Below, one piece after another: positions 27,659-37,720 of a stretch of 64,000 nucleotides of DNA. The translations under genes and the position numbers were made by a program. Position 1 is the first letter of the stretch; each line of letters starts with the position of its first letter. Source of the stretch: Dictyostelium discoideum (taxonomy: Eukaryota); the NCBI GenBank assembly GCA_000004695.1, contig CM000154.2, positions 4,576,001 through 4,640,000 on the forward strand. Direction: 5' to 3'. Under the pieces are notes generated by a model, which ran no database searches, was not told the origin of the DNA, and saw only the letters and a program-made list of their open reading frames with translations.

Positions 27659-27944
27659 TTAATAACTACAATTAGAGACATCTACACACCAACAAAATCT
27701 AATTTTTTTATTTCTTATTTCTTGTTGTCTAAAAACAACAGGATCACTTATAATATTTCCTTTATAAAATTGAAGTGCCAATCCAATACCTCTTATAAAT
27801 GATTCTTGAATATTTATTGATTCTTTAGCTGACGTTTCAAAATAATGAATCCTACAAAAATAAGGATTGCTATAATTCCCATTATTAATTTTGTCTTGTT
27901 GTTTTCTACACCATTCATCAATTTTTTCTTTTGAAATAATTTCA

Positions 27945-28025
<81 letters not shown>

Positions 28026-28586
28026 TTATTTTTATTATTTATTAAATCTATTTTATTTCCCAAGATAATTATTGGAACATTTACATAATTTGATGATAAT
28101 AAGAAATCATTTAACCATTTTTCAAGATTTTCAAATGATGTTAAATTATTTAAATCAAAACATAAAAAACAACAATGAGCACCTCTATAAAATATATTTA
28201 AAGGATAATTTATATTATTCATTTTATTTGGAATATCCCAGATCTATATTTTAATATATACATTTAAATATTTTTAATTAATAATATTTGTTTTTGTTAT
28301 TAAATTGTTAAAAAAAAAAAAAAAAAAAAAAAATACAAACATTTAATATTATATGTTGACGTTTGAAATCAATTTCTTTTTGGTGTAAATAGTCCATTGG
28401 AGTTTTATTTTCATATTTTTTCCCTAAAAAACTTTTAATAATAGAACTCTTTCCAACTCCAGAGTCTCCACCTACAAAAATCTAATTAAATTATTTATTG
28501 TTAGTATTTCAAGGTAATTTTTTTAAAAAAAAAAATAATAATAATAACAGTTTGGCAACCTTTAAATTTATTTTTTTTTCATCCAT
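27659..28586 (-). CDS. Rab-like GTPase paralog A, 3 exons: complement(join(27659..28243,28341..28481,28560..28586)). Switch II is degenerate.
   Basis: Exon 1 MDEKKINLK. Exon 2 IFVGGDSGVGKSSIIKSF.. (intact P-loop). Exon 3 begins IWDIPNKMNNINYPLNIFYRGAHCCFLCFDL.., so DTAGQE is replaced by DIPNKM. Then LGNKIDL..YFETSAKESINIQESF. TACTAAC lies 18 nt before the exon-2 acceptor. Exon-1 donor is GTTGCC (weak). A polyN insert is encoded by (ATT)n. Confidence 0.6.
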
Positions 28587-28999
28587 TATTTAATAGCTTT
28601 AAAAATATTTTATTCAATTGTTAGTTATTAAAATATTTTTTCTTTTTTTTTTTAAATTATTTATAAAAAAAAAAAAAAAAAAAAGAGATCAGGTTTCTCT
28701 GGTGTGAAAATCTCCAAAAAAAAAATAAAAAATGAAAATAAGAAAATTAAATAACTGGCATTAAAATAAAGCAATTTTCATTTCCCAAATGAGTTACTTT
28801 ATTAATTTTTGATAATTTTTAATTTTATTGTGAGAAGTATTATTAATATTGATATTAATGGACCAAATTTTTATTTTATACTTTTATTTTTGAATTTATT
28901 TAATTACTATTCATTACTATTAATTAAAAATTCGAGTGATTTACAATATCTTCTAATTATGGTTTATTTTTTTATTTTATTTTTTTTATTTTTTTTTTT

Positions 29000-29789
29000 C
29001 TAACAACAATATCCAGGTTTTACTTCTTGAAGTGAATCAATTGCAGGTGTGGTTATTGGTGGTTTTTGATTTTTATTATAATGTTCCAAAGCTAATTTAA
29101 GAGCAGCATTATATGATTCTGTAATATTTTGAGAAAACTTTGCAGATGTTTCAAAATAATGAACTCTATCAATAATTCCTTGATCTTCAATATTTTTACA
29201 CCATTGTTCAATTCTTTCTTTTGATATTGATTTATCAGTTCTTGGAATATCTTTTTTTGTACCTATTAAAACAAATGGAACTTTTCCAATACAGAACTTT
29301 CTAGCTTCGTCCATCCATTTATCAAGATTTTTAAATGATTTTTCATTGTGAATATCAAAACAAAGTGTATAACAATTTGACCAACGATAATAAATTGGGC
29401 TTAGGCCATTAAAACGTTCTTGACTACAGGTATCCCAAACCTTGTCATTATCATAATTATTATTATTATTATTATTTATTCCATTTTTTTTTTTTTTTTA
29501 ACATGTTGTTATTTATTCGTTTTTATGAGTTACAAACTTACATTTAAAATGACAGGTTCATTTTCAATGGTTAGGGTCTTTGAATAAAAAGATGGTGAAA
29601 CTGTGCACTCATTAATTTCATATTTTCCAGTAACAAAATTATTAAATACAGATGTTTTGCCTACATAACTGTCTCCAAGAGTAATAATCTTAAAAAATTT
29701 AAAAATAAATAGTTTAATTTTATATATAAAAAAATTAGAAATTATAAAAACTAATTAAATTATAATACCTTTAAACTTTTTTTACTCAT
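29000..29789 (-). CDS. Rab-like GTPase paralog B (G-type), 3 exons: complement(join(29000..29440,29542..29688,29769..29789)).
   Basis: MSKKSLK | [18 protein letters not shown]...EPVILN | [59 protein letters not shown] and GTAAGT donors. Switch II reads DTCSQE. C-terminal CC prenylation motif. Confidence 0.65.
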
Positions 29790-30074
29790 TTTACCTTTCA
29801 ATAACTTTTAAAAAAAAAAATAAAAAAAAAAAAAATAAATTAAAAAAAAAAATTAAAAACTCGCAAGAGAACAAAGATCTCTATTTTTTTTTTTTTTTTT
29901 TTTTTTTTGTTTTTATAAATAGAATTTTTACAATAGTGGTGGGAATTAGACAAAACTTAATTTTTTATACATTTTCAGTTTTTTTTATTTTTTTTCAAAG
30001 ATAACTATCCAAAAAAATGAATGTGTATATTCATAAATTTTGAAAATAATTTAATAATTTTGAAATGATTAAAT

Positions 30075-30114
<40 letters not shown>

Positions 30115-30123
<9 letters not shown>

Positions 30124-30770
30124 TGTTCCAACTTTGACTTCTTCCGGCGGACCAATTGGACGAATAATTGAGATATATTTAACTATACTATAATGTTCCA
30201 AAGCTAGTTTTGCAGCAACATTATATAATTCTGTAACATTTTGAGAAAGTTTTGCAGATGTTTCAAAATAATGAACTTTATCTATAATTCCTTGATCTTC
30301 AATATTTTTACACCATTGTTCAATTCTTGCCTTTGATATTGATTTATCAGTTCTAGGAATATCACTTTTTGTACCTACTAAAACAAATGGAATATTTCCA
30401 TAGCAGTACTTTATAATTTCATCCATCCACTTTCCAAGATTAATAAATGATTCTTCATTGTGAATATCAAAACAAAGTGTATAACAATTTGCACCACGAA
30501 AATAAGGTGGACTAAATGCTTGAAAACGTTCTTGACCACAGGTATCCCAAACCTAATACAATATAATTTATAATTAATAAAACAGTTTTATTTTATTTTT
30601 TTGAATGAATTATACACTTACCATTAAAAACACATGTTTATTTTCAACCTTTAATTCCTTTATAAAATAGTCAGGTCCAATTGAGGGTGGCCTATTATAT
30701 CGATATTCTCCATTAACATAATGATAAAAGAGAGATGTTTTACCAACATTACTGTCTCCAAGAGTTATAA

Positions 30771-30810
<40 letters not shown>

Positions 30811-30894
30811 AGAAAAAAAAAAATTTCAATAAAATAAGAAATTAATATATAATATATTAATCAATACCTTTAACATTGTTTTTTCTTCTTTCAT
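30115..30894 (-). CDS. Rab-like GTPase paralog C (G-type), 3 exons: complement(join(30115..30552,30622..30771,30868..30894)).
   Basis: MKEEKTMLK | [25 protein letters not shown] | [53 protein letters not shown]. Phases are consistent with the ORF-track frame. Confidence 0.65.
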
Positions 30895-30956
30895 TTTTAA
30901 ATATTATATTATATATTAATGATTAAGTTTAATTTTTAAAAAAAAAAAAAAAAAAA

Positions 30957-31160
30957 GGGTTTAAATGATATTTTTTATTTTTAATTGTTGAGAGAGCCAA
31001 GATCTCTTTTTTTTATTTACAAAATTTAGAAAAAAATAAAAATCTGAAATATTTGGAATGTTGTTTGGATATTTCTATTATTTTTAAAAATAGAAAACAA
31101 CACCCATGAAAATCATAATTTGAACTTTTATTATTATTATTATTATTATTTATTTTTAAA
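30957..31160. repeat. Conserved roughly 190-bp element; copies at 30957-31160, 33062-33250 and 35649-35850.
   Basis: gggtttaaatgatattttttatttttaattgttgagagagccaagatctc...gaaaacaacacccatgaaaatcataatttgaactttt recurs three times with over 90% identity. Each copy sits immediately 3' of an F-type gene and 5' of a G-type gene or its remnant. Confidence 0.8.
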
Positions 31161-31518
31161 ATTCTACCACAACCCTAATATCCCATTCGATGATGCAGGG
31201 TGGAAATATTTATTGAATTTTTCTGTTTATTTTTACACCATTGTTCGATTCTTTCTTTTGAAATTGATTTTTCAGTTCTTTCAATATCACTTTTTGTACC
31301 TATTAAAACAAATGGAACTTTCTCATCAACTAATGTATTTGCTTCTAATTCTTTTATCCAATAAATAAGATTATTAAATGATTGTTCATTATGAATACCA
31401 AAACAAAGTACACAACAATCTACATCTCTATAATATATTTTACTATCACCGAATGCACTACCATGTGTATTCCATAACTTTTCATTTTTATTGATTTATT
31501 ATTATTACTATCCATTTT

Positions 31519-31555
<37 letters not shown>

Positions 31556-31700
31556 CAAATTGGTACTTACTTGAAATGATACTGTTTCATTATCAATGAT
31601 TATCTCCTTGTAGTGAAAATCTAGTGCAATTGAGTAACCCCATTGAAAAATAGGTCTACCCATATATAATTCTTAATAATCGATAATTTACCCACCATTC
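31120..31700 (-). pseudogene. Rab-like paralog D: truncated, rearranged copy of the F-type gene.
   Basis: Nearly identical to 33260-33920 over exon 2 and the 5' half of exon 3. About 150 bp of the exon-3 3' part is deleted and replaced by unrelated sequence (aaccctaatatcccattcgatgatgcaggg...), and the frame is not maintained. Confidence 0.6.
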
Positions 31701-32061
31701 TATCACCAATTGTTATTATCTTGTAAAAAAAATGCATATGCTTTAATACTTATATCTGATTTTAATAAGAATTTTTTTTTTTTTTTTTTAAAATACCTTT
31801 AAAAGTTTTCTTTTATTATCCATCACTATTATCTGATTAATTTGAAACTTGAAAAAAAAAAAAAAAAAAAAAAAAAAAGTGAGAGAAAGAAAAGTAAAAA
31901 AAGTCAGAGTAAGAAAAGCATGCTTTTGAACTTTTTTTTTTTTATTTTTTTTTTTTTTTTGACCACAGAGAAAAAAAAAAGAAAAAAAAAATTTGGTTGT
32001 TCACCACCAACTTTTTGCTTCTATAATTTATTTTTTTAAAAAATCAATAATAATAATAATG

Positions 32062-32093
<32 letters not shown>

Positions 32094-32717
32094 TCAACAA
32101 CTTGATGATTTGATATTATTGTTATTTGATATTTCCAGTGTTGGATTTAATTTTGATTCATTTAATTTTTGCATTGAATTAAAATAATTTAAAGCAAACT
32201 TTGAAATGATATTGAATGGCTCTTTAATATTTTTTGAATTCTTTGCAGATGTTTCAAAATAATGAACTTTATCTATAATCCTTTGATCTTCAATATTTTT
32301 ACACCATTGTTCAATTCTTTCATTTGATATTGATTTATCAGTTCTAGGAATATCACTTTTTGTACCTATTAAAACAAATGGTGGTGATAATTTCTCACTT
32401 TCCAAACCATTCTCTAAACATTTTGAATGTAATTCCGTTATCCATTTATCAAGATTTTTAAATGATTCTTCATTATGAATATCAAAACAAAGTACACAAC
32501 AATTTGCATTACGATAGAAATGTCTATTTAAACTGGTAAATCTTTCTTGACCTGCGGTATCCCAAAAATGGTATCCAACAAGTTCATCATCGATCATTAT
32601 CTCTTTATAAAATAAATCAAAAGTTGATGGACAAGTATAAATACCAAATTTTCTACCTGCGAATTCATTAAATATTGCTGTCTTTCCAGAATTATAATCA
32701 CCAATCATTATTATCTA

Positions 32718-32767
<50 letters not shown>

Positions 32768-32856
32768 AAATTAAAAAATGTTAACTTTTATAGTATAATA
32801 TAAAAATAAAAATAAAAATCACATACCTTTAATTTCTTATTTGCTTTATATTCCAT
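32094..32856 (-). CDS. Rab-like GTPase paralog E (E/I-type), 2 exons: complement(join(32094..32714,32827..32856)). Canonical motifs.
   Basis: MEYKANKKLK | [90 protein letters not shown]. Ends ..SSSC*. GTATGT donor; acceptor AATAG at 32716..32715. Confidence 0.65.
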
Positions 32857-33259
32857 TTTTAAAAATATGTATGTATGTGTGTGTGAGATAAAAATAAAAT
32901 AAAAATAAAACCAATCAAGATTTTTTTTTTTTTTTTTTTTTGGGTTGTTTTTTTTTTTTTTTTTTTTTTTATTATTAATTTTTTTTATCTAAACATTATT
33001 TTTTGTTCATTCATTTTTAAATATTATATATAATAAAAAAAAATAAAAAAAATAAAAAAAAGGGTTTAATTATTTTTGATTGTTGAGAGAGCCAAGATCT
33101 CTTTTTTTTTATTTACAAAATTTGAAAAAAATAAAAATCTGAAATATTGGAATGTTGTTTGGATATTTCTAATTATTTTTAAAAATAGAAAACAACACCC
33201 ATGAAAATCATAATTTGAACTTTTTTTTATTATTATTATTATTATTTATTTTTAAAATC

Positions 33260-33721
33260 CTACCACCAACAAATTCCTTTTGGTTTTTCAGGTTCAATTG
33301 AAATATTTATTGAATTTTTCTGTTTATTTTTATATTGATTTAATGCTATTTTTACTATAGTTTCATAAGCTTCAATAATGTTTGTTGATAATTTTGCAGA
33401 AGTTTCAAAATAATGAATTTTTTCTTTTACAATACCTTGATCTTCAATTTGTTTACACCATTGTTCGATTCTTTCTTTTGAAATTGATTTTTCAGTTCTT
33501 TCAATATCACTTTTTGTACCTATTAAAACAAATGGAACTTTCTCGTCAACTAATGTATTTGCTTCTAATTCTTTTATCCAATAAATAAGATTATTAAATG
33601 ATTGTTCATTATGAATATTAAAACAGACTACACAACAATCTACATCTCTATAATATATTTTACTATCTTCATATGCACTACCATGTGTATTCCATAACTT
33701 TTTATTATTATTATCCATTTT

Positions 33722-33753
<32 letters not shown>

Positions 33754-34053
33754 CAAACCAAATTGGTACTTACTTGTAATGATACTGTTTCATTATCAAT
33801 GATTATCTCTTTAAAGTGAAAATCAAATGGAATTGAGTTACCCCATTGAAAAAAAGGTCTACCCATATAATTCTTAATAATCGATAATTTGCCAACCATT
33901 CTATCACCAATTGTTATTATCTTTTTTTTTTTTACATCATTGTTATGAAAAAAAAAAAAAAAATTGCATATGTTTTCTTATTAATATCTGATTTTAAAGA
34001 ATTATTTTTTAATTTTAAAAAAATACCTTTAATAGTTTTCTTTTATTATCCAT
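33260..34053 (-). CDS. Rab-like paralog F (F-type), 3 exons: complement(join(33260..33697,33774..33920,34027..34053)). P-loop and switch II are degenerate.
   Basis: MDNKRKLLK | [18 protein letters not shown] (GxxxxGK-L, the T/S is lost)..ETVSLQ | [27 protein letters not shown] (DTAGQE becomes NTHGSA)..[29 protein letters not shown] donor at 33773..33772 and acceptor AAAAAG at 33699..33698, so the track's MDNNNKK start falls inside the intron. Confidence 0.55.
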
Positions 34054-34326
34054 CACTATTTATCTGATTAATTTGAAATTTTTTAAAAAAAAAAAAAAGT
34101 GAGAAAGTCAAAAAATGAGCAGAAAAGTAGAAAAGCTTCAAACTTCTGTTTTTTTTTTCATCACACAACAAAAATAAAAAACCAACAAAAAAAAAAAAAA
34201 AAAAAAATAAAAAAAAAAAAAAATTTATTTACCAATCTTTCTTTGAAAATATTTTCAAAGTTGATAATAAAAAAAAAAAAAAAAAAATCATCATCATTGA
34301 TCAATTTATTTTAATTGGTAAAAAAA

Positions 34327-34410
34327 AGTGATATTCCAAGAACTGATAAATCAATATCAAATGGAAGAATCGAACAATGGTGTAAAAATATTGAAGATCA
34401 AGGAATTATT
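34327..34410 (+). pseudogene. Inverted fragment of a Rab-like gene (plus-strand [29 protein letters not shown]).
   Basis: Reverse complement of the conserved exon-3 segment found in paralogs E, G and I. Only about 85 bp, with no flanking exon. Confidence 0.6.
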
Positions 34411-34449
34411 GATATATATATTTTTTTTTTTTTTTTTTTTTTTTTTATT

Positions 34450-34640
34450 ATAAATATTTTTAAAGAAAGATTGTAATTTAATTTTAAAGTTGACGAGGTT
34501 GTTTTTCATATTCATGGGCTTGTAGGATCATTTCAAATTTACCAAATTCTATTTTACTAATAATGCTTCATGTTCTTGCCAACAATCAAAAATTTCTTTC
34601 CAGCTTCATCACCCAGTGTATTGACATTTTTCTTCTTTTA
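34450..34640 (-). pseudogene. Fragment of the HDDC2 gene (copy of about 37790-38000 with internal deletions) lying inside the Rab array.
   Basis: agttgacgaggttgtttttcatattcatgggcttgtaggatcatttcaaattt... is near-identical to agttgatgaggttgtttttcatattcgtaggcttgtaggatcatttcaaattt... in the intact gene. Two deletions; not translatable. Confidence 0.6.
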
Positions 34641-34751
34641 TTATTATGATTGATATTAATGGAGCAAATTTTTATTTTATTTAATAATTATTTATTACTA
34701 TTAATTAAATATTCAAGTGATTTACCATCATCTTCTAATTAATGGTTTATA

Positions 34752-34782
<31 letters not shown>

Positions 34783-34783
34783 A

Positions 34784-35606
34784 TTAACAACAATGTCCAG
34801 GTTTTACTTCTTCAAGTAAAACAATTGCAGGTGTAGTAATTGGTGGATTTTGATTTTTATTATAATGTTTGAAAGCTAATTTAGCCGCAGCATTATATGA
34901 TTCTGTAATATTTTTAGAAAGTTTTGAAGATGTTTCAAAATAATGAACTTTATCTATAATTCCTTGATCCTCAATATTTTTACACCATTGTTCAATTCTT
35001 GCCTTTGATATTGATTTATCAGTTCTAGGAATATCACTTTTTGTACCTATTAAAATAAATGGAATACTTTCAAAACAGTACGTTTTAGTATCGTCCATCC
35101 ATTTTTCAAGACTGTCAAATGATTTTTCATTATGTATATCAAAACATAGTGTGTAACAATGTGCACCACGATAATAAGCATAACCTAATGAATGAAAACG
35201 TTCTTGACCAAATGTATCCCAAACCTAATATATTATAATTATTTTATTTTTTATTATTATTATTATTTTTTTTTTTTTTTTTTTTTTTTTTTTCAATTTA
35301 CCACTTACCATCATAGACACATGCTGATTTTCAATCATTAGTTCCTTTGAACAAAAATCAATTGAGCATGACCTATGATATATAAATTTCCCATACATAT
35401 AATTATAAAAGAGAGATGTTTTACCAACATTACTGTCTCCAAGAGTTATAACCTAAAAATAAACAAAAATAAAAAAATATAATAAAAAAAAGAAAAAAAA
35501 AAAGAAAATTAATTTTAAAAATAAATAAAAATAAGAAAAAAAAAAAAAAAAGAAATTAATATATACTTATTTACAATACCTTTAACATTATTTTTTGTTC
35601 ATTCAT
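34784..35606 (-). CDS. Rab-like GTPase paralog G (G-type), 3 exons: complement(join(34784..35224,35309..35452,35580..35606)).
   Basis: MNEQKIMLK | [25 protein letters not shown] | [59 protein letters not shown] and GTAAGT donors. Confidence 0.65.
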
Positions 35607-35823
35607 TTTTAAATATTATATATAATAAAAAAAAAAAAAAAAAAAAAAGGGTTTAAATGATATTTTTTTTATTATTTTTAATTGTTGAGAGAGCCAAGAT
35701 CTCTTTTTTATTTACAAAATTTGGAAAAAAAAAAAAAAAAAAAAAAAATTTGAAATGTTGTTTGGATATTTCCAATTATTTTTAAAAATAGAAAACAACA
35801 CCCATGAAAATCATAATTTGAAC

Positions 35824-35855
<32 letters not shown>

Positions 35856-35868
35856 TATTTTTAAAATC

Positions 35869-36491
35869 CTACCACCAACAAATTCCTTTTGGTTTTTCAG
35901 GTTCAATTGAAATATTTATTGAATTTTTCTGTTTATTTTTATATTGATTTAATGCTATTTTTACTATAGTTTCATAAGCTTCAATAATGTTTGTTGATAA
36001 TTTTGCAGAAGTTTCAAAATAATGAATTTTTTCTTTTACAATACCTTGATCTTCAATTTGTTTACACCATTGTTCGATTCTTTCTTTTGAAATTGATTTT
36101 TCAGTTCTTTCAATATCACTTTTTGTACCTATTAAAACAAATGGAACATTTTCATTAAATAATGACATCCAATGATTAAGATTATTAAATGATTGTTCAT
36201 TATGAATATTAAAACAGAGTACACCACAATCTACATCTCTAAAATATATTTTACTATCATCGAATGCACTACCATGTGTATTGAAAAGCTTTTTATTATT
36301 ATTATTATCCATTATAATTTTTTTTTTTTTTTTTTAAACCAAATTGGTGCTTACTTGTAATGATACTGTTTCATTATCAATGATTATATCCTTAAAGTAA
36401 AAATCTAATGGAATTGAGTTACCCCATTGAAAAAAAGGTTCACCCTTAAAATTCTTAATAATCGATAATTTACCAAGAAAAGCAGAAAAAC
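35869..36491 (-). pseudogene. Rab-like paralog H (F-type): P-loop destroyed and exon 1 absent; probable pseudogene.
   Basis: Exon 3 (35869..36288) is intact and F-like ([27 protein letters not shown]..). Exon 2 encodes ..[15 protein letters not shown].. (the G-x4-GK P-loop is gone). No MxxKxxLK exon-1 homolog lies upstream. The upstream sequence (36575-36760) is a copy of the E/I-type 3' end. Confidence 0.5.
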
Positions 36492-36539
36492 CTTCAAAAA
36501 AAAAAAAAAAAAAAATTAAAAAATCAACTGGTTGGTATT

Positions 36540-36575
<36 letters not shown>

Positions 36576-36671
36576 TATTGGTCACCACCAGGTTGTTTCT
36601 TCTGTAATTTATTTTTTTATTATTATTACTACTATTATTATTAGATATTTCCAGTTTTGTAATTAATTGAA

Positions 36672-37402
36672 TCATTTAATTTTTTGTATTGAATTAGAAT
36701 AATTTAAAGCAAGCTTTGTAATGGTATTGAATGGCATTATAATATTTTGAGAAAGTTTTGCAGATGTTTCAAAATAATGAACTTTATCAATAATTCCTTG
36801 ACCTTCAATATTTTTACACCATTGTTCAATTCTTTCATTTGATATTGATATATCAGTTCTTGGAATATCACTTTTTGTACCTATTAAAACAAATGGTGGT
36901 AACAACTCCATATTTTCCAAACCGTTCTCTAAACATTTTGAATGAAATTCGTTCATCCATTTATTAAGATTTTTAAATGAATCTTCAAAGTGAAGATCAA
37001 AACAAAGTACACAACAATTTACATCACGATAGAAAGATTTATTTAAATTGGTGGTAAATTTTTCATGACCGGCAGTATCCCAAATATTGCATCCAACAAG
37101 TTCATTATCAACCATTATCTCTTTATAAAAGTAATCAAAAGTTGATGGATTTGTATAACTACCAAATTTTCTGCCTACAATTTCATTAAATATTGCTGTC
37201 TTTCCAGATCTATAATCACCAAGCATTATTATCAAAATAAAAAAAAAAAAAAAAAAAATGTTAAAACATATTTTAAATTAAAAATATGTTTTACTTTTAT
37301 ATAAAATAAAAATAAAAATAAAAATAAAAATAAAAATAAAAATAAAAATAAAAATAAAAATAAAAATCACGCATACCTTTATTTTCTTATTTGCTTTTTC
37401 CA
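36672..37402 (-). CDS. Rab-like GTPase paralog I (E/I-type): complement(36672..37226), with a possibly orphaned 5' exon at 37376..37402.
   Basis: [32 protein letters not shown] (catalytic Gln is His)..[27 protein letters not shown]. Ends ..IQKIK* with no C-terminal Cys. An exon-1 homolog (MEKANKKIK + GTATGC) is present, but the acceptor that reads TAG|ATAATAATG in E reads TTG|ATAATAATG here. The (AAAAAT)n repeat at 37300-37350 is intronic or upstream. Confidence 0.55.
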
Positions 37403-37720
37403 TTTTTAAATTAATATGTATTTACGCATGTGTATGTGTGTGAGAGAGTTGAAAATAAAATAAAAATAAAACTAAAAAAATCAAGATTTTTTTTTTTTTT
37501 TAGATATTTTTTTTTTTTTATTTATTTATTTATTGTTGAAAATAAAAATTTAGGTTAATTAACACCTAAATTTTTATTTTTTTTTATTTTTTTCTTTTCA
37601 CATTTAAATTAAATTAATATTAATTTATTCAAATTCTATTTTTGTATTTACAATTTTATCTAAATTTTTTTTTTTTTTTTTTTTCTATTATTTATTATTA
37701 TTATTTTAAAAATTATTTAT

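Follow-up and report, generated by a model that had tools for sequence, protein, structure and literature searches.

Splice-site-loss alleles and unprocessed pseudogenes in tandem gene arrays are a general phenomenon. In the Ras fold, beta-1 is a central strand of the G-domain sheet, and replacement of the Gln in switch II of Ras lowers both intrinsic and GAP-stimulated hydrolysis. TBC-type RabGAPs supply a Gln in trans, and for this reason the loss of the Gln may, by analogy, have a milder effect in a Rab than in Ras. The gene described here is rabN2 of Dictyostelium discoideum. As in Ras Q61H and the naturally Gln-less Rabs, its catalytic switch-II Gln is replaced. As in splice-site-loss alleles and unprocessed pseudogenes, it is a duplicate with a splice lesion, a frameshift and deletions that is polymorphic among strains and has damaged neighbours in its array. 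However, it is unlike typical pseudogenes of this kind because its main ORF is open and annotated as a protein, and neutrality (6N:1S) is only suggested.

We analysed a 64,000-nt stretch of D. discoideum DNA (the window), in which a tandem array of Rab-like genes lies on the minus strand at approximately 27.6-37.4 kb; the DNA has a G+C content of approximately 20%. Coordinates are window positions, and features are on the minus strand unless stated otherwise. Paralog I of the array, with a 184-aa ORF at 37226..36672, is an exact protein match to AX4 RabN2 (Q54FK2 / XP_635538.1). Paralog E with its exon 1 (32853..32094) exactly matches RabN1 (Q54FK5, 216 aa), and exact-sequence look-up identified paralogs H, F and C as RabK2 (147 aa), RabK1 and RabL, respectively. 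Both the rabN2 gene and its internal-Met model are already in the curated annotation at NCBI and UniProt, as a protein and not as a pseudogene. Full-text literature searches on rabN2, rabN1, rabK1/2 and Q54FK2 gave no Dictyostelium-relevant result, and the only exact matches to the RabN2 protein came from two megabase genome contigs, with no assembled transcript among them.

The PDB sequences closest to RabN2 are from the Rab7 subfamily (e.g., 9wes_A and 1vg1_A; E=5.6e-33 across residues 7-186), and the G motifs are collinear. The 184-aa ORF contains G1 (GxxxxGK[ST], here the P-loop GDYRSGKT at 37220..37197), G3 (DxxG, here DTAG) and G5 (SAK, here ETSAK, with TSAK at 36767..36756). Unlike Rab7, RabN2 has no G4 NKxD (GTKSD at 36881..36867, with Thr for Asn), and no catalytic Gln after DxxG (WDTAGHEKF, with His); it also has an extra insert and ends without a CxC or CC prenylation motif. 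It is part of a Dictyostelium-specific expansion and is not a Rab7 ortholog. The whole array (27659..37226) has TKxD for NKxD, as do proteins P0002 and P0006. The DxxG-Gln motif is variable, reading WNTHGSA in the K types, WDTCSQE in paralog B, WDTFGQE in paralog G, WDTADTERF in a ‘cf. discoideum’ N gene and WDTAMQERF in the D. citrinum N gene, and the K types carry GKL for GK[ST]. Judging from these motifs, many array members may be catalytically impaired.

Within the array, rabN1 and rabN2 both consist of two exons, with intron 1 placed identically (after ...K and before IIM(I/L)GD), and share a P-loop of the type GDY(N/R)SGKT, TKSD for NKxD, and ETSAK; they have 76% amino-acid identity across the main exon. 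They differ in that rabN1 has an (A)nTAG acceptor, Gln in WDTAGQERF and a C-terminal ...SSSC, all three of which are gone from rabN2 in the window. Counting a one-residue insertion after switch II, rabN2 has 19 derived residue changes. It is thus a duplicate of the rabN1 type that kept the intron position, the kind of origin that defines an unprocessed pseudogene, and it may best be described as a fast-diverged rabN1 duplicate in a Rab7-like tandem array. The dS between N2 and N1 (0.18-0.23) overlaps that of N1 versus the ‘cf. discoideum’ N genes (0.12-0.20), and the age of the duplication is not separable from that split. Four residues common to N2 and the outgroups hint at an N2 origin before the split. 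Two ‘cf. discoideum’ assemblies have no positional ortholog of N2: none lies in the interval from the HD-domain gene to the first K-type gene.

We aligned the window with the rabN2 loci of two other D. discoideum assemblies, ACTFIR_002691 and ACTFIW_000111, referred to here as the wild alleles. ACTFIR_002691 (P0001) is the best database match to RabN2, with 94% identity; it is a 196-aa protein that includes exon 1. ACTFIW_000111 has the same 196-aa model, and both proteins begin with MEKANKKIK/IIMLGDY (slashes mark splice junctions). The wild alleles are like AX4 rabN2 in their position beside the HD-domain gene, their identical exon 1, their 94% protein identity, the His in switch II and the absence of a C-terminal Cys. 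They are unlike it in that the acceptor is intact and the 196-aa product includes beta-1.

The initial annotation described a well-preserved exon-1 homolog upstream of paralog I, and our alignments agree. The sequence ATGGAAAAAGCAAATAAGAAAATAAAG at 37403..37377 (ATG GAA AAA GCA AAT AAG AAA ATA AAG, encoding MEKANKKIK and ending in phase 0) is followed by GTATGC. The resemblance is not due to chance, because all 27 nt are 100% identical to the exon 1 annotated as coding in both ACTFIR and ACTFIW; against rabN1, exon 1 and the donor match at 26 of 32 positions. The 5’ splice site GTATGC (37376..37371) is intact and corresponds to GTATGT in the wild strains and rabN1. Alignment with the orthologs delimits a 144-nt intron relic (37376..37233) in which the position homologous to the 3’ acceptor has no AG. 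Within it are an (ATTTTT)10 microsatellite (37367..37308), present as 2 units in the two wild assemblies (a 48-nt expansion), and a T20 run (37258..37239).

Loss of the intron-1 acceptor, which orphans exon 1, was also part of the initial annotation and is evident at the junction, where rabN1 reads AAAAATAG followed by ATAATAATGATTGG and the window reads TTATTTTG ATAATAATGCTTGG; the G is at 37233, and exon 2 ancestrally began at 37232. The acceptor is AG in 12/12 other homologous genes examined (window paralogs B, C, D, E, F and G; N2 of ACTFIR and ACTFIW; N1 and K2 of ACTFIR; N of two ‘cf. discoideum’ assemblies), and paralog I is the sole exception. The change had been attributed to a TAG-to-TTG substitution. 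This reading is natural from the paralog comparison alone, yet the orthologs indicate that it is not the mutational path. In the wild alleles the intron ends with ...TTTATTTGATC(A)10-14TAG followed by ATAATAATG, whereas the window has ...TTTATTTTGATAATAATG. Aligned at the junction ATTTTGAT (37238..37231), the wild sequence is TTTGAT-C(A)10-14TAGAT-AATAATG and the window is without C(A)nTAGAT, which places a deletion of approximately 16 nt between two GAT repeats (16 nt relative to ACTFIR, C(A)10TAGAT, and 20 nt relative to ACTFIW), with the A-run and the TAG gone. The G at 37233 descends from the upstream TTTGATC and not from a mutated TAG. After the ortholog alignment, the point-mutation model was dropped for a microhomology deletion; one deletion of C(A)nTAGAT between the GAT repeats appears to be the most parsimonious event at the acceptor. 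Two ancestral exon-2 codons, ATA ATA (37232..37227; Ile Ile of beta-1), now lie upstream of the annotated start codon.

The T20 run and an A/T-rich tract flank the lesion, a setting prone to homopolymer errors, and a missing acceptor could in principle be an assembly or sequencing artefact of such low-complexity sequence. We compared the window with a second assembly of its lineage (L002, GCA_054883475.1), which over 6.6 kb is 99% identical and differs by 6 mismatches and 14 gap openings. The number of gap openings between two same-lineage assemblies would be in keeping with length errors, but the same differences show that the assemblies are independent. Over the whole of rabN2 they are identical, at the deletion junction as well as in the (ATTTTT)10 repeat and the frameshifted tail, and therefore the lesion is real and not a sequencing error. 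Moreover, it took out 16-20 nt, among them the non-homopolymer bases C and TAGAT, and is not a change in run length, and the annotation of the second assembly also yields a 184-aa model. We consider an artefact very improbable and rejected it on the identity of the two independent assemblies. The lesion is confined to the AX4-type lineage, as the gene is complete in the two other D. discoideum assemblies.

We evaluated all nine AGs from the donor to 37119 as replacement acceptors, with exon 1 ending in phase 0. None of the nine keeps both the frame and the P-loop. The sole AG inside the intron relic (37295-37294) is followed by TAA. A cryptic acceptor, TATAG/ATCTGG, had been suggested earlier; the site does exist, as the first downstream AG (37211-37210), but it is out of frame, and its use in a transcript from the old promoter would cause a frameshift and a 16-aa product. 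Splicing to the AG at 37201-37200 would be in frame and would delete the P-loop, and splicing to the AG at 37120-37119, also in frame, would remove approximately 40 residues. If the intron were kept, the transcript would carry a 41-codon upstream ORF with an (IF)n stretch.

The sole long ORF starts at Met 37226. Translation from this internal ATG had been presumed initially, and the resulting product is exactly the curated AX4 RabN2 model (36672..37226; 184 aa plus a stop at 36674..36672, ending ...IQKIK). The context of this ATG, ATAATAATG, is A/T-rich as is usual for this genome, and if the old promoter were used, three ATGs (37403, 37374 and 37269) with short ORFs would precede it. Translation could begin at the internal ATG if, for instance, transcription started at a cryptic site behind the T20 run, or a non-AG acceptor could be used. 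An AlphaFold model of the full-length ortholog (AF2, 22-sequence alignment; pLDDT 78.5, pTM 0.81), used solely to delimit beta-1, places this strand at residues 6-14. The 184-aa product begins at residue 12 of the full-length ortholog and is without 6 of the 9 beta-1 residues (6-11), which leaves the G-domain fold incomplete. The Pfam Ras profile (PF00071) matches the product with E=8.8e-29 at profile positions 4-159 only, whereas the full-length ortholog is matched from position 1. Because most of beta-1 is missing, the truncated product is predicted to be unlikely to fold stably. The earlier proposal that this gene is being remodelled to a new N-terminus thus looks unlikely, given the missing beta-1 residues and the three upstream ATGs that the old promoter would impose.

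The Gln-to-His change in switch II, also noted initially, is present in WDTAGHEKF as CAT (37067..37065) in place of the catalytic Gln codon CAA. All three N2 alleles share this His and the one-residue insertion just after switch II. The position is Gln in N1 of both D. discoideum assemblies and in the N genes of ACTFIZ, D. dimigraforme and D. citrinum, and Thr in the ACTFIY N gene. Because N1 and these three N genes carry Gln, the His is, on this comparison, an old and derived character of N2.

The lack of a C-terminal Cys in paralog I, another feature of the initial annotation, is likewise found in the ORF end ...IQKIK. The C-terminal residues are ...SSSC, SSNC, FTC or STC in RabN1 and in the N genes found in four other assemblies, and the Cys for geranylgeranylation is absent from RabN2. 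In the window, a frameshift at 36689..36672 (ATA CAA AAA ATT AAA TGA) stems from one extra A in an A-run, 6 A compared with 5 in rabN1 (ATG CAA AAA TTA AAT GAA; ATACAAAAAATT in the window and ATGCAAAAATT in N1), and leads to IQKIK and a stop. The decayed tail continues at 36671..36582, where KLEISNNN, homologous to TLEISNNNN of rabN1, is encoded in another frame. Further along, the AX4 tail has a 2-nt deletion and an approximately 41-nt deletion that took the prenylation end (...SSSC and the stop). Compared with its parent and orthologs, the AX4 allele thus has these disabling lesions: the deleted acceptor and, in the tail, a +1 frameshift and the 2-nt and approximately 41-nt deletions. The wild alleles have a TCA-to-TGA change at the codon after ...KKLND, where the window keeps TCA. 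Alignment of these tails indicates that the C-terminal Cys was lost independently, by different lesions, in the AX4-type and wild lineages. After the TGA, the wild frame is still open to ...TLEISNNNISNNNNTESSSC and a stop (the ...SSSC end), which could reflect either a recent nonsense mutation or stop-codon read-through. The open stretch is 24 codons in ACTFIR (L001 6704-6780) and 23 in ACTFIW (L003 ~1988-2060).

We then compared substitution patterns. Pairwise dN/dS was 0.32-0.35 for N2 (AX4 versus ACTFIR), 0.41-0.49 for N1 and 0.16-0.44 for the flanking HD gene. The pairwise omega of rabN2 is no higher than that of rabN1 or, in one comparison, of the HD gene, and by itself calls no pseudogene. 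Substitutions were also assigned to branches by polarisation with four N1-type genes, which gene conversion in the array could distort. The N2 stem has 27N:5S (omega ~1.3; P=0.0005 against omega 0.3), or 23N:5S (omega ~1.1; P=0.003 against omega 0.3) without four changes that deeper outgroups put on the N1 side. The AX4-type branch, with 7 changes only, has 6N:1S (omega ~1.45). The wild stem has 3N:4S (omega ~0.18; P=0.03 against neutrality), and ACTFIR versus ACTFIW, after the shared nonsense codon, has 1N:4S (omega ~0.06; P=0.006 against neutrality), giving 4N:8S for the wild clade in total (omega ~0.12; P=0.0005 against neutrality). The difference between the AX4 branch and the wild clade is borderline, with tiny counts (Fisher test, p=0.057). 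These small counts suggest purifying selection on the wild rabN2 alleles and relaxed constraint on the AX4 allele. The pattern fits a fast-diverging duplicate with a G domain that, although the Cys is gone, would still be under constraint in wild strains and free of it in the window lineage. Under neutrality, the chance that the 184-codon ORF stays open after approximately 39 substitutions is ~0.12, a value that speaks neither for nor against a pseudogene.

From the lesion, its restriction to one lineage and its consequences for the reading frame, we infer that AX4 rabN2 is probably a lineage-specific loss-of-function allele, a segregating pseudogene produced by microhomology deletion of the intron-1 acceptor. 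In the AX4-type lineage, a deletion of approximately 16 nt between two GAT repeats took the 3’ end of intron 1 with its A-run and TAG acceptor, leaving the donor and exon 1 intact with no AG to restore the frame. Loss of function is likely because there is no frame-restoring AG and because the sole long ORF is without most of beta-1, has His for the catalytic Gln and ends in a frameshifted tail without a prenylatable Cys. The allele also looks like a loss-of-function allele because the lesion is limited to one lineage and two other assemblies keep the full gene; in those strains, a spliceable 196-aa gene has a G domain apparently still under purifying selection. The 5’ truncation of the neighbouring rabK2, in this lineage only, is in line with a null allele.

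It is unlikely that the AX4 allele functions as annotated, as a shortened, non-prenylated Rab-like protein of 184 aa with exon 1 serving as an untranslated leader or upstream ORF. Such a protein would draw on the 184 open codons with intact P-loop, DxxG and SAK motifs, on the curated NCBI and UniProt models, on a start codon in the usual A/T-rich context and on a pairwise omega below 1 against the wild alleles; the wild alleles also have His and no Cys and yet look constrained, and neither feature alone kills the gene. However, it would be missing residues 6-11 of the nine-residue central beta-1, three ATGs with short ORFs would lie ahead of its start if the old promoter were used, the AX4 branch has an excess of N changes and the tail three further indels, and other strains have full-length alleles. 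We regard as quite improbable that rabN2 is dead in all strains and that the acceptor loss is only the latest lesion, after function was lost before the strains diverged. The omega of the N2 stem, slightly above 1 under either count, would agree with this, as would the Gln-to-His change and the insertion after switch II in all alleles, the loss of the prenylation Cys through independent lesions in both lineages, and the lack of an N2 at the corresponding position (from the HD gene to the K-type gene) of the two ‘cf. discoideum’ assemblies. Yet a stem omega near 1 would fit an adaptive burst too, the wild clade as a whole and the comparison of ACTFIR with ACTFIW after the shared nonsense codon both depart from neutrality, and exon 1, donor, acceptor and the 196-codon ORF are intact in both wild assemblies. 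More tentatively, and in view of the G-domain counts of 4N:8S in wild strains and 1N:4S after the shared nonsense codon that took the Cys, wild RabN2 could be a functional, naturally non-prenylated Rab7-like protein with a switch-II His, of which the AX4-type laboratory lineage would be the natural null, and the null of rabK2 as well; we hold this as a possible but doubtful extension. If wild RabN2 is functional, the alleles would offer a ready-made knockout together with its complementing gene, for work on a Rab that is soluble and probably GTPase-impaired and that sits in an array with fast birth-and-death turnover.

If AX4 rabN2 is a loss-of-function allele, as we think probable, it represents ordinary strain-specific gene decay with no new mechanism, and its value is mainly in annotation. 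The reference entries for RabN2, at 184 aa, and RabK2, at 147 aa, probably describe what damaged alleles encode and not native proteins, and they merit flagging in Rab catalogues and in Dictyostelium proteomic and phylogenetic work. Wild isolates encode longer RabN2 and RabK2 proteins (196 and 198 aa, respectively). The locus would be a small, clean case of birth-and-death evolution in a lineage-specific GTPase array.

Several other members of the array are also damaged or differ among strains. The AX4-type rabK2 (paralog H, 36520..35869) is without exon 1, intron 1 and the 5’ approximately 25 nt of exon 2, which encode the P-loop, and the annotated start ATG of the 147-aa RabK2 matches sequence at the 3’ end of rabK1 intron 2. 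The ACTFIR ortholog (L001 7029-7763) encodes 198 aa and has exon 1, intron 1 and the P-loop. By this comparison, the reference lineage probably has a second damaged allele in rabK2. Paralog D (~31830..31160), of the K type, has a 2-nt insertion relative to rabK1 (tatatatggg versus tatatggg) and an internal 3’ deletion, and is likely a pseudogene. An inverted relic of an array member, approximately 110 nt in length, lies on the plus strand between paralogs G and F (34304..34414), with ~87-93% nucleotide identity to the corresponding block of the other paralogs. Between the HD-domain gene and rabN2, ACTFIR has approximately 790 nt of extra sequence (L001 4897-6001), in which a 160-aa ORF without a Pfam match was called; this stretch is absent from the window and from ACTFIW. 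The genomic-frame ORFs of rabK1 (33275..33260) and rabK2 (35884..35869) end with ...KPKGICWW and a stop. The AX4 RabK1 protein record (P0016) ends with ...KPKGIFQIMIFMGVVFYF, implying that its gene model differs at the 3’ end. A relic of a WW-stop end, TGGTGGTGA, follows rabN2 at 36590..36582; TGGTGGTGA is also found downstream of rabN2 in both wild assemblies, and a related TGGTG string follows rabN1 in ACTFIR.
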